A model generated the notes under the pieces. The model worked only from the letters and a program-made list of their open reading frames with translations, did no database searches and had not been told where the DNA came from. Of a stretch of DNA of 16,203 nt, positions 6,876-16,203 are shown one piece after another; positions within the stretch are counted from its first letter, which is position 1; each line of letters opens with the position of its first letter. Source of the stretch: a virus (Duplodnaviria; Heunggongvirae; Uroviricota; Caudoviricetes); IMG/VR virus record IMGVR_UViG_2547132271_000008, positions 1 through 16,203 of that record. One strand, given 5' to 3'. A program made the position numbers and the translations under genes.

Positions 6876-7502
6876 CTAGAGTTCGTATTGAACTCCTTTG
6901 ACTACACCAATGATGAGGCAATTACCATTGATCGGGATGTTGGGGTACCGGGGATTTAATGGCACTAAAAACTTTTGAGGGCCATCGATAACTAATTTTT
7001 TTACTGTGGCTTCGTTTGTTCCATCAAGTCTAGCGATGACTATTTTTCCATGCCGGGGTTCTGCATCAGGATCTACAATCACTGTTGCGCCTTCTGGTAT
7101 TGTTGGGAGGCCGTTAGGGTTAGTCATGGAGTCGCCTTTAACCTCCAATGCAAATGAGTTATCACCAATCTTTAATGATGTATCTACCCACTTGTCTACT
7201 TCACTAAACACTTCTGCTGTCCTGCACTCAGTAAACTGCCCAGCCTGAACCCACGAGATTACAGGAACTCTGCGCATGTTTGTGACGAGTTTGCCTTCAA
7301 ACTCCGCACCATAAAGAATGTAATCTATTGACGTATTGAAGAACTTCGCTAATTTTGAAAGTGCTTCCCCACCAGGGACATTGATGTCTTTCTCCCAGTA
7401 CCCCACAGCAACGTCACTTACTCCACAAAATTTACCCAATTCTTTCTGGGACGTTCTGGTAACTCTTCTCAGAGCTTTTATACGCTGACCAACCGTTTCC
7501 AT
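6876..7502 (-). CDS. cI: CI-like prophage repressor (N-terminal XRE-type HTH + C-terminal S24 LexA-like autopeptidase)
   Basis: 208 aa. N-terminal HTH (QKELGKFCGVSDVAVGYWEKD). C-terminal S24 signature with GDSM (EVKGDSMTNP) and a downstream Lys (TVKKL). Divergent from the Cro-like gene across a 97-bp operator region. Confidence 0.8.
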   Translation of the reverse strand: METVGQRIKALRRVTRTSQKELGKFCGVSDVAVGYWEKDINVPGGEALSKLAKFFNTSIDYILYGAEFEGKLVTNMRRVPVISWVQAGQFTECRTAEVFSEVDKWVDTSLKIGDNSFALEVKGDSMTNPNGLPTIPEGATVIVDPDAEPRHGKIVIARLDGTNEATVKKLVIDGPQKFLVPLNPRYPNIPINGNCLIIGVVKGVQYEL

Positions 7503-7599
7503 AGGAGCACCATTTCTTTAATTACTAAGTAATCTTAGTTTTTATTGACCTAAGATAGATTGATAATTAACATCTAATAAAACTTAGTTTGGAGGGCAT
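7503..7599. promoter_or_regulatory. oR-type operator/promoter region (divergent pRM/pR)
   Basis: Palindrome ACTAAGTAATCTTAGT (7524-7539) plus further CTAAG/ACTTAG half-sites (7551-7555, 7582-7587). Candidate rightward promoter TTGACC (7545-7550) with TAACAT about 17 bp downstream. GGAGGG SD before the cro-like ATG. Confidence 0.55.
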
Positions 7600-7800
7600 A
7601 TGACGACTGACGATATCGAAAGCTACTTCGGCAGCATTGAGAAAGTTGCTGCTTTTTTCGGCATAACAACTGAAGCCGTTTATCAGTGGCGAAACCGTCC
7701 TGGCCAGTTAATTCCAAAAGGACGTGCAGCAGAGGCTGCATATAGAACTTGCGGACGGTTGCCATTTAAACCTGAGCTTTATGAAAAATCTAATGGATAA
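7600..7800 (+). CDS. cro: Cro-like small HTH regulator
   Basis: 66 aa, first rightward gene opposite the repressor, with GGAGGG SD. HTH-like segment (FFGITTEAVYQWRNR). Confidence 0.6.
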   Translation: MTTDDIESYFGSIEKVAAFFGITTEAVYQWRNRPGQLIPKGRAAEAAYRTCGRLPFKPELYEKSNG

Positions 7801-8757: not shown

Positions 8758-8810
8758 AGGTCGGTCATGAGCCTGTTAATGACATCCCAGCCCATTGTGA
8801 TAAATCGTGA
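8598..8810 (+). CDS. alternative-frame ORF with TTG start and strong SD (possible real overlapping gene or 3' part of a frameshifted gene)
   Basis: AAGGAGA (8584-8590) lies 7 nt before TTG 8598. The 70-aa product ([40 protein letters not shown]...) has a globular-looking composition and preferred E. coli codons. It overlaps the O-like gene start by 44 nt. Confidence 0.3.
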
Positions 8811-9759
8811 TCTTGCATGCCGTATTGGTCTGAATGAGGCAATTGTGTTGCAGCAGCTTCATTACTGGCTGAATGAAACGAATTCCGGCACTGAGCATGG
8901 CGGAATTCGCTGGGTTTATAACACGACAGAACAGTGGCTGGAGCAGTTTCCGTTCTGGTCAGAGTCCACTCTGAAACGCACATTTGCAAGCCTGAAATCA
9001 CTTGGGGTTTTGCGTCGCGAGCAACTCAATAAATCGAAGCGTGACATGACCAACTTCTACACGATCAACTATGAAAGTGAGCTTCTAGAAGAGGTCAAAG
9101 TGAACGAATCCATCAGGTCAAAATGCACTTCTCCATCGGGTCAAAGTGACCTGATGGATGGGCGCAAAATGACACGATCCATTGGTTCAAAACGACACGC
9201 TGTCATCGGGTCAAAATGGCCCAATGATCTTACAGAGAATACAACAGAGATTACTACAGAGAATAAAACCTCTTCTCGTCCGGACGCTTCGCAACCGGAC
9301 ACGCAGATGGCTGAACAGGATTTTTTAACTCGCCATCCTGATGCGGTTGTATTCAGCCCTAAAAAGCGCCAGTGGGGAACGCAGGATGATTTGACCTGCG
9401 CACAGTGGCTCTGGAAAAAAATCATCGCTCTGTACGAGCAGGCCGCCGAATGTGACGGCGAAGTGGTACGTCCTAAAGAACCGAACTGGACAGCCTGGGC
9501 AAACGAAATTCGCCTGATGTGTGTACAGGATGGGCGTACTCACAAACAAATCTGCGAGATGTACAGCCGCGTCAGCCGCGATCCGTTCTGGTGCCGTAAC
9601 GTGCTCAGCCCGTCGAAGCTGCGGGAAAAATGGGATGAGCTTTCCCTGCGCTTATCGCCGTCCGTCAGCACGCACACAGAAAAACGCGAAGACCCGTACT
9701 TCAAAGCCAGTTACGACAATGTGGACTACAGCCAGATCCCGGCAGGATTCAGGGGGTGA
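8767..9759 (+). CDS. phage replication initiation protein (lambda O-like replisome organizer)
   Basis: N-terminal [27 protein letters not shown]...WVYNTTEQWLEQFPFWSESTLKR resembles the replisome-organizer N-domain. Iterons lie inside the gene, as in lambda O. Sits in the canonical position after the cII-like gene. Confidence 0.7.
   Translation: MSLLMTSQPIVINRDLACRIGLNEAIVLQQLHYWLNETNSGTEHGGIRWVYNTTEQWLEQFPFWSESTLKRTFASLKSLGVLRREQLNKSKRDMTNFYTINYESELLEEVKVNESIRSKCTSPSGQSDLMDGRKMTRSIGSKRHAVIGSKWPNDLTENTTEITTENKTSSRPDASQPDTQMAEQDFLTRHPDAVVFSPKKRQWGTQDDLTCAQWLWKKIIALYEQAAECDGEVVRPKEPNWTAWANEIRLMCVQDGRTHKQICEMYSRVSRDPFWCRNVLSPSKLREKWDELSLRLSPSVSTHTEKREDPYFKASYDNVDYSQIPAGFRG
9091..9270. repeat. 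origin-like iteron array (six ~23-bp-spaced GGTCAAARTG repeats) followed by an AT-rich ACAGAGA triple repeat
   Basis: Read directly: iteron cores at about 9093, 9116, 9139, 9162 (degenerate GCGCAAAATGA), 9185 (GGTTCAAAACGA) and 9209. Then ACAGAGA at 9233, 9244 and 9256 in an AT-rich stretch. Confidence 0.6.
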
Positions 9760-9761
9760 TC

Positions 9762-10250
9762 ATGAGTCTTTTGAATGAAGCTCAGAAATTCATTGAAGCC
9801 CATCCGGGGTGTACTTCCGGAGACATTGCGGATGCTTTTGCAGGTTACTCACGGCAGCGCGTTCTGCAGTCAGCAAGCAAGTTACGTCAGAGTGGGCGTG
9901 TGGCTCACCGTTGTGAAGGAGATACACGCAGACATTTCCCACGCCTGACTGAGAGAGCGCAGGAGCCGGAACCACAACCAGTTCGTGAAACCAGACCTGT
10001 GCGCAATTTCTATGTCGGCACTAACGATCCCCGGGTGATTTTGTGCCTGACCCGCCAGGCTGAAGAACTGGAGTCCAAGGGCTTATACCGTCGTGCTGCA
10101 ACCGTGTGGATGGCGGCATTCCGTGAAAGCCACTCCCAGTCAGAACGAAACAATTTTCTGGCGCGCCGTGAGCGGTGCTTACGGAAAAGCAGCAAGCGCG
10201 CTGCATCGGGTGAAGAGTGGTATCTGTCAGGGAATTACGTGGGGGCTTAA
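9762..10250 (+). CDS. PerC-like transcriptional regulator (tentative)
   Basis: AGGGGG SD 5 nt before ATG 9762. C-terminal LESKGLYRRAATVWMAAFRES...RRERCLRK resembles the PerC/Pch core as I recall it. TAATG overlap with the next gene. Confidence 0.4.
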   Translation: MSLLNEAQKFIEAHPGCTSGDIADAFAGYSRQRVLQSASKLRQSGRVAHRCEGDTRRHFPRLTERAQEPEPQPVRETRPVRNFYVGTNDPRVILCLTRQAEELESKGLYRRAATVWMAAFRESHSQSERNNFLARRERCLRKSSKRAASGEEWYLSGNYVGA

Positions 10251-10903
10251 TGAGTAATAAATATTGCCAGGCGCTGGTGGAACTGCGGAACAAACCAGCC
10301 CATGAACTGAAGGAAGTGGGCGATCAGTGGCGCACGCCGGACAACATTTTCTGGGGAATTAACACCCTGTTTGGCCCGTTTGTTCTGGATCTGTTCACTG
10401 ACGGTGATAACGCCAAATGTGCCGCGTATTACACGGCGGAAGATAACGCGCTGGCGCATGACTGGTCAGAACGTCTTGCGGAGCTTAAAGGTGCTGCCTT
10501 TGGTAATCCCCCATACAGCCGCGCCAGTCAGCATGAGGGGCAATACATCACCGGCATGCGTTACATCATGAAACATGCCAGTGCCATGCGTGATAAGGGC
10601 GGGCGCTATGTTTTCCTGATCAAAGCTGCCACCAGCGAAGTGTGGTGGCCGGAAGATGCGGACCATATTGCTTTTATTCGCGGGCGTATTGGTTTTGAAC
10701 TGCCTGCCTGGTTTATCCCGAAGGATGAGAAGCAGGTGCCGACAGGAGCTTTCTTCGCTGGTGCTATTGCTGTTTTCGACAAGACCTGGAAGGGACCGGC
10801 AATCAGCTACATCGGGCGCGATGAACTTGAGGCATGTGGTGAAGCCTTTCTGGTGCAGGTTCGCCAGCAGGCGGAAAAACTGGTCAGGGAGATGGCAGCA
10901 TGA
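10250..10903 (+). CDS. phage Dam-type N6-adenine DNA methyltransferase
   Basis: Catalytic NPPY motif (AAFGNPPYSR) and the N-terminal KYCQALVE...WRTPDNIF pattern of small phage Dam-family methylases. Coupled to neighbours (TAATG and ATGA). Confidence 0.7.
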   Translation: MSNKYCQALVELRNKPAHELKEVGDQWRTPDNIFWGINTLFGPFVLDLFTDGDNAKCAAYYTAEDNALAHDWSERLAELKGAAFGNPPYSRASQHEGQYITGMRYIMKHASAMRDKGGRYVFLIKAATSEVWWPEDADHIAFIRGRIGFELPAWFIPKDEKQVPTGAFFAGAIAVFDKTWKGPAISYIGRDELEACGEAFLVQVRQQAEKLVREMAA

Positions 10904-11226
10904 CGACGTTAACTCAATGCCAGCAGCAGGTGCTGGATATGCTGATTTCTTACCAGAAAGAACGTGGCTTCCCGCCAACCAATCAGGAGGTGGCAACCAT
11001 GCTGGGATACCGTTCAGTGAATGCAGCGGTGGAGCATCTTCGCGCACTGGAGAAAAAAGGCGTCATTACGATAAAGCGTGGCGTGGCCCGGGGGATAACG
11101 CTTCATACCGCAGTGAAGGACGACGACAGAGAGGCGGTCGGGATTATCCGCTCACTGCTTGCCGGTGAGGAAAACGCAAGGCTGCGTGCAACCCACTGGT
11201 TACATGAGAGGGACCTGAAAGTATGA
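10900..11226 (+). CDS. LexA N-terminal DNA-binding-domain-like protein lacking the S24 peptidase domain
   Basis: MTTLTQCQQQVLDMLISYQKERGFPPTNQEVATMLGYRSVNAAVEHLRALEKKGVITIKRGVARGITL aligns by eye with E. coli LexA residues 1-70. Only about 38 further residues follow, with no Ser/Lys catalytic domain. Confidence 0.65.
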   Translation: MTTLTQCQQQVLDMLISYQKERGFPPTNQEVATMLGYRSVNAAVEHLRALEKKGVITIKRGVARGITLHTAVKDDDREAVGIIRSLLAGEENARLRATHWLHERDLKV

Positions 11227-11612
11227 AGCTGATCCTGCCTTTTCCGCCCAGCGTGAACACGTACTGGCGACATCCCAACAAAGGGGCGTTTGCTGGTAAG
11301 AGCCTGATAAGCGCGGCGGGGCGAAAATTCCAGAGCGCGGCGTGCGCAGCAATAGTTGAGCAGTTACGTCGTCTGCCAAAACCAACGTCGGCACCTGCTT
11401 CAGTGGAGATCGTGTTGTTTCCTCCGGATAACCGGATCCGCGATCTGGACAACTATAACAAGGCGCTGTTTGACGCCCTGACCCACGCGGGTGTGTGGGA
11501 AGACGACAGTCAGGTGAAAAGAATGCTGGTGGAGTGGGGACCGGTTATCCCGGAAGGGAAGGTCGAGATCACCATCAGTAAGTACGAGAAAACGGCGGGT
11601 GCAGCCGCCTGA
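11223..11612 (+). CDS. rusA: RusA Holliday-junction resolvase
   Basis: 129 aa. N-terminal LPFPPSVNTYWR and the acidic catalytic region (IRDLDNYNKALFDALTHAGVWEDDSQV) are typical of RusA. ATGA overlap with the upstream gene. Confidence 0.85.
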   Translation: MKLILPFPPSVNTYWRHPNKGAFAGKSLISAAGRKFQSAACAAIVEQLRRLPKPTSAPASVEIVLFPPDNRIRDLDNYNKALFDALTHAGVWEDDSQVKRMLVEWGPVIPEGKVEITISKYEKTAGAAA

Positions 11613-11631
11613 TCAAGAGGAGAAACGAAGT

Positions 11632-12441
11632 ATGAATAATCTGATGGTCATTGATGGTATTGAAGTTCGTCGTGATGCTTATGGGCGTTACAGCCTGAAC
11701 GATCTGCACAGGGCTGCCGGGGGAGAACAAAAAAACCGCCCGAAATACTGGCTCTCCAATAAGCAAACCTGTGAATTGATTGAACAACTTTTCACCGAGG
11801 GTGGAATTCCGCCTCTGGAACAAAATCAACCAGTTAGCGTCATTAATGGCGGAAATAACCAGGGGACGTATGTCTGCAAAGAACTGGTGTATGCCTATGC
11901 AATGTGGATCAGCCCGTCATTCCATCTGAAGGTGATCCGTACTTTCGACATGGTAACCAGCGCACCGGAAAAATTATCCGGACAGGCTGCTGACAAGATG
12001 CAGGCTGGCGTGATCCTGCTGGACTTTATGCGCCGGGAATTAAATCTGTCTAACTCATCAGTGCTTGGAGCCTGTCAGAAGCTTCAGGAGGCTGTTGGCT
12101 TACCGAATCTGGCACCGCGCTATGCCATTGATGCTCCTGCTGACGCGCCTGATGGCTCAAGTCGCCCCACGCTGTCGCTGAGTGCACTGCTGAAGCAGTA
12201 TGGTATCCGCCTGACAGCTAATCAGGCATATCACCAGATGGCGAAGCTGGGGATCGTTGAACAACGTGAACGATACAGCCGCACTGCGATTAACAACATC
12301 AAAAAATTCTGGTCGCTGACAGCGAAAGGCTGCATGTTCGGCAAAAACATCACCAGTCCCGCAAATCCGCGCGAGACGCAGCCGCATTTCTTCGAATCCC
12401 GATTCCCTGAGCTGTTAAAGCTGCTCGATACCGTTCATTGA
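11632..12441 (+). CDS. KilA-N domain protein (anti-repressor/Bro-type)
   Basis: Start at MNNLMVIDG with GAGGAG upstream. N-terminal YSLNDLHRAAGG...RPKYWLSNKQTCELI matches the KilA-N signature. Confidence 0.65.
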   Translation: MNNLMVIDGIEVRRDAYGRYSLNDLHRAAGGEQKNRPKYWLSNKQTCELIEQLFTEGGIPPLEQNQPVSVINGGNNQGTYVCKELVYAYAMWISPSFHLKVIRTFDMVTSAPEKLSGQAADKMQAGVILLDFMRRELNLSNSSVLGACQKLQEAVGLPNLAPRYAIDAPADAPDGSSRPTLSLSALLKQYGIRLTANQAYHQMAKLGIVEQRERYSRTAINNIKKFWSLTAKGCMFGKNITSPANPRETQPHFFESRFPELLKLLDTVH

Positions 12442-12442
12442 G

Positions 12443-13438
12443 GTGACCGTGAGAGCACTACTGACCCCTGAAATTGCCCCGCGTATGGGGATCGTATTGT
12501 TCAGGCCAGGTTCAGAGCTGATGCCCCTGTTTATGCAGGGGCGTGTTCTGCTGGAGCCTGAGCCGGAACGTTACTCATCTTTCGCCAGTGGTGCCGTTCC
12601 GGCGGCATCACAACCGCTGGCGGATGATCCTGCCGTTCGGGCCGTGTTCCGCAATGAGGCAGTGATCCGTCGTGCTGGTGGCGTGGAATGTCTTGAAAGC
12701 TGGTTACTTCGTGAAAAAGGCTGCCAGTGGCCTCATTCCGACTGGCACAGCGAGAACATGACCACAATGCGACACGCTCCGGGTGCAATCCGTCTGTGCT
12801 GGCACTGCGATAACCAGCTGCGCGATCAGTTCACGGAACGGCTGGAATCAATGGCAACGGATAACTGTGCCCGCTGGGTGTTGTCTGTTGTGCGTCGGGA
12901 TCTCGGTTTTGATGATAGTCACGTTGTGACAATGCCGGAACTGTGCTGGTGGCTGATTCGTAATGATCTGGCGGATGCCTTACCGGAAAGTGCAGCCCGT
13001 AAGGCACTGAGATTACCGAAGCCTGTTGTGCCGTCTGTTACCCGGGAAAGTGACCTTGTGCCTTCGGTTCCTGCCACCAGCATCATCCAGGATAAAGTGA
13101 AAAAGGTGCTGGCGCTGAAAGTGGATCCGGAGTCGCCGGAGTCTTTTATGTTACGCCCAAAACGTCGCCGCTGGGTTAATGAAAAGTACACGCGCTGGGT
13201 TAAGACACAGCCGTGTGCATGTTGTGGTAAGCCTGCTGATGATCCCCACCACCTGATAGGTCACGGTCAGGGTGGAATGGCTACAAAAGCGCATGACCTC
13301 TTTGTGTTGCCTTTGTGCAGAAAGCATCACGACGAGCTGCATGCGGATACCGTGGCATTTGAAGAGAAGTATGGCTCCCAGCTGGAGCTGATATTTCGTT
13401 TTATCGATCGTGCGCTGGCAATAGGCGTGCTGGCCTGA
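12443..13438 (+). CDS. DUF968-type protein with C-terminal Cys/His (HNH-like) motif, NinG/YdfU-like
   Basis: C-terminal CACCGKPADDPHHLIGHGQGG...PLCRKHHDELH cluster. Exact start uncertain among GTG 12443, GTG 12449 and ATG 12485. Sits in the nin-region position before Q. Confidence 0.55.
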   Translation: MTVRALLTPEIAPRMGIVLFRPGSELMPLFMQGRVLLEPEPERYSSFASGAVPAASQPLADDPAVRAVFRNEAVIRRAGGVECLESWLLREKGCQWPHSDWHSENMTTMRHAPGAIRLCWHCDNQLRDQFTERLESMATDNCARWVLSVVRRDLGFDDSHVVTMPELCWWLIRNDLADALPESAARKALRLPKPVVPSVTRESDLVPSVPATSIIQDKVKKVLALKVDPESPESFMLRPKRRRWVNEKYTRWVKTQPCACCGKPADDPHHLIGHGQGGMATKAHDLFVLPLCRKHHDELHADTVAFEEKYGSQLELIFRFIDRALAIGVLA

Positions 13439-13455
13439 TTTTGTGGAGAAAGTTG

Positions 13456-13827
13456 ATGCGTGATATTCAAATGGTTCTTGAACGTTGGGGGGCATGGGTG
13501 GCAAATAATCACGAGGATGTGGAATGGTCATCTGTTGCTGCAGGTTTTAAGGGATTAATTCCTTCGAAAGTAAAATCCCGCCCGCAATGTAGCGATGACG
13601 ATGGCCTGATCATTAGCTCTGCGATGACAGTTCTTAAGAAAAAGGAACCGTATCAATACGAATTACTGGAAATGTATTATGTGTATGGGGTTACATTACG
13701 GGCGTTGGGGGTAAAACTGGGGATATCACTTAATCAGGTTGTTATCAGACTGCAGAAAGCTGAAGGGTTTATTGACGGTTGTCTGGCAATGTTGGGGGTA
13801 TCTTTAGAAATTGATTGTTACATATAG
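13456..13827 (+). CDS. late-gene antiterminator Q-like protein
   Basis: About 123 aa with GGAG SD 7 nt before ATG 13456. Last gene of the nin-type block after RusA and DUF968. Sequence (MRDIQMVLERWGAWVANNHEDVEW...YELLEMYYVYG) resembles the small Q family of phage 82/21-type phages. Confidence 0.65.
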   Translation: MRDIQMVLERWGAWVANNHEDVEWSSVAAGFKGLIPSKVKSRPQCSDDDGLIISSAMTVLKKKEPYQYELLEMYYVYGVTLRALGVKLGISLNQVVIRLQKAEGFIDGCLAMLGVSLEIDCYI

Positions 13828-13902
13828 TAATAAATTCAATCAAAGTAAATAATCATATTTTATTATAACCTCCTGATGATACCTGTTCATTGGGAGGTTA
13901 TT

Positions 13903-14520
13903 ATGGATAAAAATGTAGAGCATGTATTAGTTGATGCAATTGAAAATAAGCTATCTTTAACAGTCGTTTACTTAGGAGGGAGCCAGCCCGGAACATTAAG
14001 GAATATTTCTCCGATTAGTATAAATGGGGATAAATTGCGGGCAAGATGCCATAGTTCTGGAGCAGTAAAGGTTTTCAATCTTGGGAAAATACAGTTACCC
14101 AGTGACTCCTGCGCGGTATCTATGCACTATGGAGATTTAGAAGTTAAAGCTTATGAGACGATGCAGAGCGTAAATGACAACTTTCATGCCCTTTATCCTG
14201 AAGGACGATGGGGTGTTGATTTTAATGAGCATCGCTTTGCTTTATTTGATTTTTTTAAAAACGGGAAACGAAAAAAAACGGCATTTATGGCAATTGAGTT
14301 CAGGGAAAGAGATGAAGAGAAAATAATAACAGGTGTAACAATTGATATTGGTATATCTGGAACAGTGATTTCTGAGAAGTCCCGAATCCCAAAAAGACGA
14401 CCATGGGTAGTGGTTGGTCCCGAACACGGAGAATACAGTACTTATTCAACTTTGGACAAGGCTGCTACAGCGTTTTTTGAGAGGCTATCGTTGATAGCAT
14501 CCGGCCTGGAAGATAATTGA
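13903..14520 (+). CDS. hypothetical cargo protein of unknown function; N-terminal segment possibly WYL/SH3-like beta fold
   Basis: GGGAGG SD 5 nt before ATG 13903, 75 bp after Q. Visibly AT-rich compared with flanking phage genes. N-terminal LSLTVVYLGG...LRNISPISINGDKLRARC...KVFNLGKI loosely resembles a WYL-type motif; no confident family. Confidence 0.55.
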   Translation: MDKNVEHVLVDAIENKLSLTVVYLGGSQPGTLRNISPISINGDKLRARCHSSGAVKVFNLGKIQLPSDSCAVSMHYGDLEVKAYETMQSVNDNFHALYPEGRWGVDFNEHRFALFDFFKNGKRKKTAFMAIEFRERDEEKIITGVTIDIGISGTVISEKSRIPKRRPWVVVGPEHGEYSTYSTLDKAATAFFERLSLIASGLEDN

Positions 14521-15000: not shown

Positions 15001-15150
15001 TGGCGGTTTCCTGCTGTGAAAATGGGCGGCTGGTGGGTGTTGGTAGCACCTGCCAGCCATTCGCTCATGCTTACTGGTCACAAGCGAACCACGGCCCACT
15101 GCTTTAGCGCAAAAGCAGAGTGAGCCTACCAGAGTTACGCTTACTGATCC

Positions 15151-16203
15151 ATGAAAAATACTGTAAAAATAAACAGTGTTGATTTAATCAACGCTGATTG
15201 CCTGCATTTTATTCAGTCCCTGCCTGATGATTCCATTGACCTGATTGTTACCGATCCGCCGTACTTCAAGGTGAAACCCAACGGTTGGGACAATCAGTGG
15301 AAAGTGGACGAAGATTACCTTAAGTGGCTGGACCACTGCCTGGCCCAGTTCTGGCGGGTGTTAAAACCTGCCGGAAGCCTTTATCTGTTCTGTGGGCATC
15401 GCTTGGCATCTGATATTGAGATCATGATGCGTGAACGTTTCAACGTGCTTAACCATATCATCTGGGCGAAGCCGTCCGGACGTTGGAATGGGTGTAATAA
15501 AGAAAGTCTGCGCGCATATTTTCCTGCCACAGAGCGCGTTCTGTTTGCTGAACATTACCAGGGGCCATATCGCGGCAAAAGTGACGGCTATGCAGCAAAA
15601 GAAAGGGAACTCAAACAGCACATAATGGCACCGCTGATATCGTATTTCAGGGATGCTCGTGCCGAACTGGGTATAACGGCAAAACAAATTGCCGAAGCCA
15701 CAGGTAAGAAAAATATGGTTTCCCACTGGTTTGGTGCCAGTCAGTGGCAGTTGCCGAATGAGGCTGACTATCGGAAGTTACAGGCACTGTTTTCCCGTAT
15801 AGCGGCAGAGAAGTTTCAGGAACAACAACTGGAACAACCACACCACCAGCTGGTGGCATCTTATGATTCACTGAATCGCAAATATTCTGAATTGCTGGAT
15901 GAGTTTAAATCTCTCCGGCGCTATTTCTCCGTATCAGTCTCCGTGCCTTATACCGATGTCTGGATGCATAAACCCGTTCAGTTCTACCCGGGGAAACATC
16001 CGTGTGAGAAACCGGCGGATATGCTCAGGCAAATAATCAATGCCAGTAGTCGACCAGGTGATCTGGTTGCTGATTTTTTTATGGGATCCGGTTCCACAAT
16101 AAAAGCAGCAATGGCGCTGGGGCGTCGGGCCTTAGGTGTTGAGCTTGAGTCAGAGCGGTTTAACCAGACAGTGACAGAGATAAACGAGCTGGTGGGGAAA
16201 TAA
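15151..16203 (+). CDS. DNA methyltransferase, beta-class N6-adenine/N4-cytosine type (DPPY motif before the AdoMet-binding FxGxG motif)
   Basis: 350 aa. Catalytic DPPY (IVTDPPYF) near the N-terminus and AdoMet-binding DFFMGSGST near the C-terminus, the beta-class order. No restriction-enzyme partner in the window, which ends at this gene's stop codon. Confidence 0.8.
   Translation: MKNTVKINSVDLINADCLHFIQSLPDDSIDLIVTDPPYFKVKPNGWDNQWKVDEDYLKWLDHCLAQFWRVLKPAGSLYLFCGHRLASDIEIMMRERFNVLNHIIWAKPSGRWNGCNKESLRAYFPATERVLFAEHYQGPYRGKSDGYAAKERELKQHIMAPLISYFRDARAELGITAKQIAEATGKKNMVSHWFGASQWQLPNEADYRKLQALFSRIAAEKFQEQQLEQPHHQLVASYDSLNRKYSELLDEFKSLRRYFSVSVSVPYTDVWMHKPVQFYPGKHPCEKPADMLRQIINASSRPGDLVADFFMGSGSTIKAAMALGRRALGVELESERFNQTVTEINELVGK

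Follow-up and report, generated by a model that had tools for sequence, protein, structure and literature searches.

Phages are known to act on the host SOS response in two ways, by targeting LexA itself (GIL01 gp7) or by targeting RecA (DinI- and PsiB-like proteins). GIL01, a tectivirus (Tectiviridae) of Gram-positive bacteria, also encodes gp6, a truncated LexA homologue that is 44% identical to the N-terminal domain (NTD) of host LexA (Fornelos et al. 2018, PMC6182141). The gp6 protein binds a palindrome, GaCACAnnTGTGaC, over the -35 of the late promoter P3 and activates transcription (PMC6182141). In lambda, NinH is a mimic of host Fis, in which seven of eight DNA-contact residues are kept and a novel C-terminal extension is implicated in dimerization (PMC7166090). 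In the bacterium, cleavage of LexA lowers its DNA affinity and exposes residues that send the fragments to ClpXP/Lon, and DinI has a role in SOS modulation (both PMC6590174).

Here we describe a small LexA-like protein encoded by a lambdoid Escherichia coli prophage. The window, that is, the whole stretch of DNA analyzed, is 16.2 kb long. The gene is part of the rightward early (nin) operon and lies upstream of Q. As an earlier note on this DNA had stated, it is tightly coupled to the genes for a Dam methylase and the RusA resolvase; ATGA overlaps occur at both of its ends. The features of the locus are as follows:

6876..7502, minus strand: prophage immunity repressor (HTH_3 and Peptidase_S24 domains; CI-S24)
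7545..7573, plus strand: pR-like promoter TTGACC-17-TAACAT, before cro (consensus scan only)
10217..10903, plus strand: phage Dam N6-adenine methyltransferase, upstream neighbor (PF05869, E = 1.1e-45)
10900..10903, plus strand: ATGA in which the Dam gene stops and the LexA-like gene starts (translational coupling)
10900..11226, plus strand: LexA-like gene, ATG start, 108 codons, product identical to WP_000210147.1
11223..11226, plus strand: ATGA in which the LexA-like gene stops and the RusA gene starts (translational coupling)
11223..11612, plus strand: RusA Holliday-junction resolvase, downstream neighbor (PF05866, E = 6e-15)

The order of genes (cro, cII-like, replication, PerC-like, Dam, LexA-like) is gap-free and includes no internal promoter regions, and the transcript that reaches the LexA-like gene probably starts at the pR-like promoter. 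Late genes of the prophage are under Q antitermination. The LexA-like gene lies 3.4 kb downstream of the immunity region, in the rightward operon, and is not divergent from cro. Since the prophage has its own CI-S24 repressor, encoded at 6876..7502 on the minus strand, the LexA-like protein is not the lysogeny (CI-type) repressor.

A LexA-type DNA-binding domain with a two-helix tail

The earlier note had recognized LexA in the N-terminal ~70 residues and had found the autoprotease domain missing, and both observations hold. Residues 1-65 match the full PF01726 (LexA_DNA_bind) profile (positions 1-65 of 65) with 69 bits and E = 2.9e-19, far beyond chance; the gathering cutoff is 23.7 bits. E. 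coli LexA residues 2-69 (PDB 1LEA/3JSO) align without gaps at ~50% identity (HMMER, E = 7e-16), and an AlphaFold model of the protein (pLDDT 80.5) fits DNA-bound LexA (3JSO) to 0.9-1.1 Å over 66-69 residues. The modelled secondary structure consists of helices 6-22, 28-35 and 40-52 and strands 56-58 and 66-68. The protein ends at residue 108, and no PF00717 match, S24 peptidase/dimerization domain or Ser119-Lys156 dyad was found in it. The TIGR00498 match covers model positions 1-91 of 203 only, with 71 bits, which is below the equivalog cutoff of 110.95. Three parts of the protein can be distinguished:

10900..11106, plus strand: LexA-type winged helix-turn-helix, residues 1-69 (PF01726, LexA alignment, model)
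11014..11055, plus strand: recognition helix SVNAAVEHLRALEK, residues 39-52
11116..11208, plus strand: two-helix hairpin (helices 73-87 and 93-103), residues 73-103 (model, conservation)

LexA contacts bases through S39, N41, A42, E44 and E45 (PMC3091678, PMC13416735; both secondary sources). The earlier note had proposed checking such residues for conservation, and the outcome is divided: S39, N41, A42 and E45 are kept, and E44 is replaced with V44. The four residues are present in 83 of 84 window-type proteins, i.e., those of the same type as the product of this gene. Across essentially all subfamilies S39, N41 and A42 are retained. Glu44 never occurs in the short family, its place being taken by V, A, F or T, and in other subfamilies many members, the SOS-box-linked ones (SPNAVALH) among them, have A, T, S, L or D instead of Glu45. 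With E44 lost throughout and E45 not constant, the DNA specificity may differ from that of LexA. Outside these positions, H46, K53 and R64-G65-I66 of the LexA NTD are also conserved, whereas V replaces P40 and N replaces R28.

All 53 distinct alleles examined are intact, and their whole-gene pN/pS of 0.10 confirms the coding frame. The ratio is 0.02 in the DNA-binding domain and 0.32 in the tail. The value of 0.02, which extends to the recognition helix, together with the invariant S39, N41 and A42, suggests that the protein reads specific sequences.

The tail has a fold that is absent from LexA, and no matching structure was found for it in PDB or BFVD. Its helices are modelled at pLDDT 86-89 and the linker at low confidence. 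The tail is conserved in relatives down to ~40% identity, with L86, A93, A97 and L101 invariant. A confident, conserved tail behind a low-confidence linker is the pattern expected of a separate oligomerization module, and the tail is a candidate dimerization element. The C-terminus, …RDLKV, is unlike the ends of LexA cleavage fragments.

Within E. coli LexA, the phage protein resembles the N-terminal domain, which corresponds to the autocleavage product LexA 1-84, but it has no S24 domain with Ser119/Lys156 and carries the new tail instead. One would expect it neither to be cleaved nor to display signals for ClpXP/Lon. E. coli lexA is a chromosomal gene autoregulated within the SOS response, whereas the LexA-like gene belongs to a phage early operon.

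Distribution, selection and linkage

The gene is already known as an object. Residues 1-108 match the entire PHROG 362 profile (1-106 of 106, E = 8.2e-59), which is labelled 'transcriptional repressor', and WP_000210147.1 is annotated as "LexA family protein". SfV orf42, mEp460 gp46 and the Stx-phage pham 237 belong to the same protein family at 95-100% identity. We found no difference between these entries and the protein described here; they are annotation labels only, and a literature search by accession and annotation phrase returned no functional study of the family. The gene occurs in 2233 of 5426 complete E. coli genomes (41%), and its carriers include Stx2c, Stx2a, Stx2k, cdt and Shigella serotype-converting phages. 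Contrary to its presentation as a discovery in the earlier note, the family is already annotated and very common.

Two reports that might seem to concern this protein refer to other factors. Cross-repression by phage 1720a-02, a carrier of the gene, is credited to Cro in the 'bully phage' preprint, and the term 'LexA-like' in the mEpimmI paper denotes the S24 domain of CI, not a stand-alone protein. PADLOC gave no meaningful match to a defence system. A scan of one genome per species is uninformative for the short family: its search pattern lay in the recognition helix, which LexA shares, and only chromosomal lexA genes, such as that of Halomonas, came back.

A length of 106-108 amino acids is typical across Escherichia, Citrobacter, Salmonella and Hafnia, and an S24 domain was found in none of 166 close homologues. 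With the tail conserved as well, the possibility raised in the earlier note of a longer LexA-like gene reduced to a truncated pseudogene falls away: the gene is intact, under purifying selection and not a pseudogene.

The surroundings of the gene are conserved in part. RusA directly adjoins it in 77 of 78 window-type loci and also in subfamilies that are 40-47% identical, and in loci without RusA the LexA-like gene is followed by DUF968. The co-travelling genes are PerC-like, RusA, KilA-N and DUF968 (70-77 of 72-78 loci). Dam is a less constant neighbor, present in 62 of 77 loci, and RusA can also occur without the LexA-like gene, as in Hafnia phage yong2, where RusA directly follows Dam. Other regions are swapped freely: the particular immunity region is shared in only 11 of 74 loci with the gene, and the Q or late-promoter region in only 1 of 69.

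SOS boxes and candidate operators

A scan for CTGT-N8-ACAG boxes, suggested in the earlier note, identified a single strong box in the window:

15159..15178, no strand assigned: SOS box TACTGTAAAAATAAACAGTG, 22.3 bits, within codons 4-9 of a late-region N6/N4 DNA methylase gene

Matches with one mismatch numbered 10 against 5.6 expected, which is not clearly above chance, and other CTGT/ACAG spacings (N0-N20) revealed nothing relevant. The strong box is a possible in-cis target, although not one specific to gene-carrying phages. We rejected it as a dedicated operator because six phages without the gene also have it conserved at the start of the methylase, and because the box-bearing methylase accompanies the gene in 21 of 65 loci only.

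No phage-borne operator was found to be co-inherited with the gene. Within the co-inherited 9.7-13.5 kb block no palindrome was convincing, and in the constantly linked 9.8-13.4 kb LexA-like sites reached no more than 8.3 bits. The 16.2-kb window does not contain the gp6 core CACANNTGTG. Given the linkage pattern and a co-inherited block with no convincing operator, a target that lies outside the phage and is common to all hosts fits best.

A different arrangement was found in the P0137-type subfamily. A LexA box of 17-29 bits is present within 1.5 kb upstream of the gene in 27 of 34 loci, and in 18 of these 27 a classic SOS promoter (TTGAAC-17-TACTGT) leads into dinI, orf101 and the LexA-like gene. 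A umuD-like ORF adjoins this operon. By guilt by association, the arrangement ties the LexA-like gene to SOS modulators. An apparent 188-nt intergenic gap 3' of the gene in P0137-type loci proved to be a small overlapping ORF without sites. Near the gene in window-type, mEp390-type and P0125-type loci, no SOS box was detected.

Proposed function and alternatives

The best explanation, which we offer tentatively, is that the LexA-like protein is a functional, non-cleavable LexA surrogate acting in trans. Its binding to SOS boxes, or regulation of phage genes through LexA-like operators, as put forward in the earlier note, would be plausible from the features described above. The gene would descend from a copy of lexA that was cut short directly after the cleavage site and in which a two-helix tail replaced the S24 dimerization/autoprotease domain. 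The protein would be made solely after induction or infection, when RecA* has already destroyed host LexA, would dimerize through the tail and would bind CTGT-containing sites resembling SOS boxes. Being uncleavable and lacking the degron of the natural LexA N-terminal fragment, it could then restore or reshape the repression of LexA-controlled promoters, both those of the host and those of mobile elements in the same cell, as well as repression at the SOS boxes of the phage itself. The outcome would be an SOS response that is damped or rewired in lytic growth.

An unlikely but serious alternative is that the protein is a phage-specific transcription factor, in which the LexA fold reads an operator of the phage's own and activates or represses phage genes. 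The precedent is GIL01 gp6, the only phage homologue that has been studied. Compared by description, it likewise consists of a phage-encoded LexA DNA-binding domain only, and it has acquired a palindrome of its own and acts as an activator at a late promoter, an analogy that speaks against a LexA surrogate. The constant loss of E44 and the variability of E45 among subfamilies would fit a shift in specificity, and the PHROG 362 label would fit a transcription factor. However, the candidate regions do not travel with the gene (immunity, Q/late and methylase regions in 11/74, 1/69 and 21/65 loci), and the block that is constantly linked to it offers neither a convincing palindrome nor the gp6 core. 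The operon is gap-free without internal promoters, and the late genes are controlled by Q. The LexA-like protein also differs from the tectiviral protein in its lambdoid origin and in its extra helical tail.

Quite unlikely, in our view, is a role without transcription control, as a DNA-binding accessory of a RusA/DUF968-HNH recombination or nuclease module. Binding or bending of DNA, possibly with loose specificity, would here help or hinder the resolution of junctions, the restart of replication or packaging substrates. The constant adjacency of RusA, also in distant subfamilies, with DUF968 where RusA is missing, could indicate such a recombination role rather than that of a surrogate, and the ATGA overlap couples translation of the two genes. 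Lambda NinH provides the model: it is a small nin-region protein that sits beside a Holliday-junction resolvase, its gene directly following rap in this part of the genome, and copies the DNA-binding part of a host regulator only. Like the LexA-like protein, it keeps most of the contact residues (7/8, against 4/5 here) and has a novel C-terminal extension. The two proteins differ in fold (Fis HTH versus LexA winged helix) and in position (downstream of rap versus upstream of rusA); DNA binding by NinH is demonstrated, whereas that of the LexA-like protein is predicted. Against this role, the adjacency may be positional only, because gene order in the nin region is conserved. RusA also exists without the gene (yong2), and the strong constraint on the recognition helix points to sequence-specific reading.

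Two further possibilities concern the resemblance to LexA around its cleavage site. LexA-type cleavage is possible intermolecularly, and a remnant of the site could serve as a decoy for the SOS machinery, as a pseudo-substrate or competitor either for RecA* or for the S24 active sites of UmuD, CI or LexA. The HMMER alignment indeed continues through the LexA hinge/cleavage region (residues 70-90 against LexA 70-86; LLAGE versus VAAGE) and places A88-G89-E90 opposite A84-G85-E86, self-cleavage of LexA occurring at Ala84-Gly85. But G89 is not invariant, which led us to reject a cleavage-site decoy: it is N in Citrobacter relatives (LLANE), and other subfamilies no longer have the motif. The region is modelled as a helix, not as an extended loop, and the strongest selection acts on the DNA-binding domain, so we consider a decoy very improbable. 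The protein does resemble LexA truncated shortly past the cleavage site, but the idea of a functionless gene in decay, left over from a captured lexA or a longer phage repressor, is effectively refuted by the intact alleles, their low pN/pS, the conserved length and tail, and the many viable phages that carry it.

Returning to the LexA surrogate, its broadest form is that in ~40% of E. coli strains an uncleavable, ClpXP-resistant protein, made by a prophage only once it is induced, re-closes the SOS regulon after the loss of host LexA. This claim is doubtful, but, if true, the surrogate would silence rival elements under LexA control, such as antirepressor-type prophages, colicin operons and integron/ICE functions, and would also shut off error-prone polymerases and SulA. 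Stx-phage induction, competition in polylysogens and SOS-driven mutagenesis would be shaped by it, and the dinI-linked relatives driven by SOS boxes would give the SOS circuit a negative-feedback arm carried by phages.

If the protein does occupy SOS boxes, it would amount to a widespread viral override of the host DNA-damage response from the DNA side. Its presence in Shiga toxin, cdt and serotype-converting phages means that it could influence induction of toxin phages, and the gene could affect the rivalry of prophages within a cell and, when antibiotics impose stress, SOS-dependent mutagenesis. Whatever its target, this is among the commonest uncharacterized DNA-binding proteins of E. coli prophages and, after lambda NinH, a clean second case of a nin-region gene that copies the DNA-reading head of a global regulator of the host.

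A LexA head with a conserved tail

The 108-residue protein encoded at 10900..11226 (plus strand) matches the entire Pfam LexA_DNA_bind profile with residues 1-65 (E = 2.9e-19) and aligns with residues 2-69 of E. coli LexA without a gap. An AlphaFold model made from 19 family members (mean pLDDT 80.5) reproduces LexA's three helices and beta-wing, and superposes at 0.9-1.1 A on the LexA chains of the LexA-DNA crystal structure. The protein has no LexA autoprotease domain (S24), and its match to the LexA equivalog model, TIGR00498, is limited to the first 91 of 203 model positions and scores below the cutoff; for these two reasons it is not a member of LexA proper. It belongs to the LexA_DNA_bind domain family and to PHROG 362 ('transcriptional repressor'), which it matches end to end, and is of a known kind, the phage-encoded truncated LexA homologue. 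A LexA winged-helix start and the missing S24 catalytic domain, both noticed by eye in the earlier note, are thereby borne out.

Members of the close family are typically 106-108 aa long in Escherichia, Citrobacter, Salmonella and Hafnia, and its clusters, which represent thousands of sequences, contain none with an S24 domain. An exhaustive profile-free search yielded more distant members (106-116 aa, 40-52% identity) whose C-terminal part is still alignable. All 53 distinct alleles from related loci are intact, with a pN/pS of 0.10 overall, 0.02 in the DNA-binding domain and 0.32 in the tail. The ORF is a real gene and not a remnant; constant length, intact alleles and purifying selection contradict a truncated copy of a longer gene, which the earlier note had considered. 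A decoy role and a pseudogene are both all but excluded.

The tail (residues 73-103) is modeled with good confidence as two helices and a short turn, with invariant hydrophobic positions L86, A93, A97 and L101, and is joined to the domain by a linker (71-74) of low model confidence. Residues 70-90 can be aligned to the hinge/cleavage-site region of LexA (LLAGE versus VAAGE), so that the protein looks like a lexA copy cut just past the cleavage site and extended by some 20 new residues. Amphipathic hairpins of 30 residues are not usually stable without a partner, from which we infer that the tail is a dimerization element in place of the S24 domain.

Two other architectures occur among the related proteins. 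A 158-aa variant (related viral locus L172, 8001-8477; also L173-L179 and L003, 15273 onward) keeps the LexA-type domain but has a different 90-residue tail without a Pfam match; it occupies the same slot, in the order C5-methylase, variant gene, RusA, KilA-N. Seven homologs of 140-230 aa (P0128, P0129, P0148, P0151, P0154, P0159, P0164) carry two tandem LexA DNA-binding domains and may be single-chain pseudo-dimers of the LexA head without the protease domain.

LexA residues reported to touch DNA are S39, N41, A42, E44 and E45 (PMC3091678, PMC13416735). The corresponding reading in 83 of 84 loci of the window's own subfamily is S39, N41, A42, V44, E45. S39, N41 and A42 are practically invariant across four subfamilies; position 44 is V, A, F or T and never Glu, and position 45 is mostly Glu, although sizeable groups have A, T, S, L or D instead. 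Given the retained S39, N41 and A42, the head still looks built to read a CTGT-like half-site. Four of the five contact residues of LexA are thus kept and the fifth, E44, is replaced by V; the same specificity cannot be assumed.

Genomic setting and the SOS-linked branch

The window comprises the early/regulatory half of an E. coli prophage of the lambdoid group, whose closest named relative is mEp460 (mEp460_4F5 covers 76% of it at 97.7% identity).

Features of the window
left part: leftward early genes
6876..7502, minus: CI-type repressor (HTH_3 + Peptidase_S24)
7545-7573: pR-like promoter, 5' of cro
7600..7800: cro
between cro and the replication gene: cII-like gene
8767..9759: replication gene
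9756..10250: PerC-like gene
10217..10903: Dam
10900..11226: LexA-like ORF, 108 codons
11223..11612: RusA
11599..12441: KilA-N protein
12443..13438: DUF968/HNH
13441..13827: antiterminator Q
15151 onward: late-region N6/N4 DNA methylase

ATGA overlaps join the LexA-like ORF to both Dam and RusA, in agreement with the tight coupling proposed earlier. Since no gaps separate the genes between cro and Q and a pR-like promoter precedes cro, the ORF is most simply a delayed-early gene, which would be on in lytic growth and off in the lysogen. In Hafnia phage yong2 (L008, 4762-5795) the LexA-like gene is missing and Dam overlaps RusA directly through ATGA. This marks the gene as an optional insert, one that keeps translational coupling on both sides.

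Three further subfamilies (mEp390, P0125 and P0137 types, 40-47% identical) have the gene directly 5' of RusA, or of DUF968 if RusA is missing, followed by Q, and the 5' neighbor varies (Dam, C5-methylase, replication protein, others). The P0137 type tells the most: 27 of its 34 loci have a LexA box of 17-29 bits within 1.5 kb upstream of the gene. In 18 of these 27 the order is terminator, TTGAAC-17-TACTGT promoter overlapped by the box, DinI gene (PF06183, E = 3e-23), orf101 (without assigned function) and LexA-like gene. Locus L194 (7170-8290; similar in L193 and L186-L207), for example, has a 27-bit box, dinI, orf101, the LexA-like gene, a small 67-aa ORF and DUF968, and just upstream of the dinI module comes a umuD-like ORF that has a LexA box of its own (L207, 6836). 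At high level DinI inhibits the coprotease activity of RecA, whose filaments it modulates (PMC6590174). Part of the family is thus embedded in the SOS circuitry next to an established SOS modulator, a view tempered by the loss of E45 from most recognition helices of these proteins (SPNAVALH).

Other window genes also deserve mention. The PerC-like product (164 aa) has a C-terminal PerC domain (PF06069, E = 1.2e-9) and falls in PHROG 1324 ('transcriptional activator'); its gene overlaps the Dam start by 34 nt. In EPEC and EHEC, proteins of the PerC/Pch type control virulence genes. Directly 3' of Q lies a 214-aa ORF (13876-14520) without a Pfam or PADLOC match. Present in only 1 of 67 related loci, it is rare cargo at the site that morons such as stx occupy in lambdoid phages. 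A SocA/Panacea antitoxin-domain protein (1-474; PF13274, E = 6e-18) and a 182-aa ORF without assigned function (497-1045) may form a toxin-antitoxin or defense pair at the prophage end; the pair is common to only 1 of 80 related loci.

Co-inheritance and the search for an operator

Because lambdoid genomes are mosaics, a regulator and its operator must be co-inherited. In 80 related viral contigs, with counts corrected for truncation at contig ends, the LexA-like gene is accompanied by the PerC-like gene in 75/77 loci, Dam in 62/77, RusA in 77/78, KilA-N in 70/75 and DUF968 in 71/72. The window's immunity region (CI, cro) is shared by 11/74 loci, its replication gene by 10/75, its Q by 1/69 and the methylase with the SOS box by 21/65. 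Within the constantly linked block we found no convincing palindrome and no site above 8.3 bits with a LexA matrix based on 20 E. coli operators. The lack of a linked operator favors a target that every host offers, namely chromosomal or other generic SOS boxes, the alternative being a non-transcriptional role.

The scan did reveal a single strong LexA box in the window, TACTGTAAAAATAAACAGTG (22.3 bits, 15159-15178, codons 4-9 of the N6/N4 DNA methylase), but it is not specific to carriers of the gene. Ten diverged methylase genes conserve it as DNA sequence, and six of these genes belong to phages without the LexA-like gene, so it was rejected as a private operator, a host-LexA site or mRNA hairpin being preferred. 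CTG-N10-CAG is retained in all ten genes (L001-L009 and the window; proteins 74-82% identical), and third-codon bases are kept across an Asn-Ser/Ser-Ser replacement (AAC AGT versus TCC AGT), which suggests selection on DNA or RNA rather than protein. The palindrome also folds as an mRNA hairpin just past the start codon (z = -2.5), which leaves room for translational control as well as for LexA binding.

A second hairpin, CUGCUUU-AGCGCA-AAAGCAG (15099-15118), lies about 35 nt 5' of the methylase start codon and is kept with small changes in all ten phages compared; it has no Rfam match. Strong LexA boxes (25-26 bits, e.g., TACTGTTTTTACATACAGTA) were also met within leftward CI-type repressor genes, in the part that codes for the linker (L018 4515-4534, L011 5603-5622, L243 4499-4518), where they again encode N-T-V-x-x-N-S. 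Such boxes are present in 27 of 80 window-type loci and some mEp390-type loci. A LexA site within cI was unexpected; the window's own cI is without one.

Possible roles and distribution

Upon induction, RecA* destroys host LexA; once cleaved, LexA binds DNA less tightly and displays residues that mark it for ClpXP and Lon (PMC6590174). The phage early operon would then yield a LexA head that is uncleavable, free of that degron and held as a dimer by its tail. Bound at SOS-type boxes, this head would re-repress or re-program LexA-controlled promoters during phage replication. Fold, kept contact residues, missing S24 domain, selection, operon position and linkage pattern are observed, whereas expression timing, dimerization, site preference and physiological effect are what the proposal adds. 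We put this mechanism forward tentatively, as a whole somewhat short of probable; the observation in the earlier note is confirmed, and its interpretation partly supported.

Two precedents suggest other roles. GIL01 gp6, a truncated LexA homolog, binds its own palindrome over the -35 of a late promoter and activates that promoter (PMC6182141). The enterobacterial protein is alike in ancestry, and the linked block has no convincing palindrome; that it is a comparable phage-specific regulator seems rather unlikely. Lambda NinH, a nin-region protein beside the Rap resolvase, copies the DNA-binding part of host Fis, keeps 7 of 8 contact residues, binds preferentially at Fis-like sites and forms dimers through a C-terminal region that is new (PMC7166090). 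Genomic setting and design are alike here, and linkage to RusA and DUF968 is nearly complete; the LexA contact residues are largely kept, and we consider an accessory of the RusA/DUF968 recombination module unlikely.

The protein is identical to RefSeq WP_000210147.1 ('LexA family protein'), and some 50 phage records annotate the gene at 93-98% identity, with RusA always adjoining and Dam usually 5'. Carriers include Shigella phages SfV (orf42), SfII and SfIV, as well as mEp460, cdtI, Ayreon, 1720a-02, phiSTEC1575-Stx2k, Stx2a_WGPS2 and fifteen Stx2c phages. Of 5426 complete E. coli genomes, 2233 contain the gene's DNA, at up to four copies each. Probably the same gene is the pham 'LexA family transcriptional regulator, pfam01726' that a survey of Stx phages records for 15 phages without further comment. 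Predicted viral structures commonly include LexA-domain proteins of the stand-alone kind, 65-150 aa long, and our literature search found no experimental work on the enterobacterial protein. It is thus already known as an annotated object and is very common; its distinctive points are the conserved tail and the linkage to RusA in the nin region, the early rightward segment before Q. Its existence will not surprise a specialist, but the hypothesis is well defined, inexpensive to test and of relevance for the biology of Stx phages.
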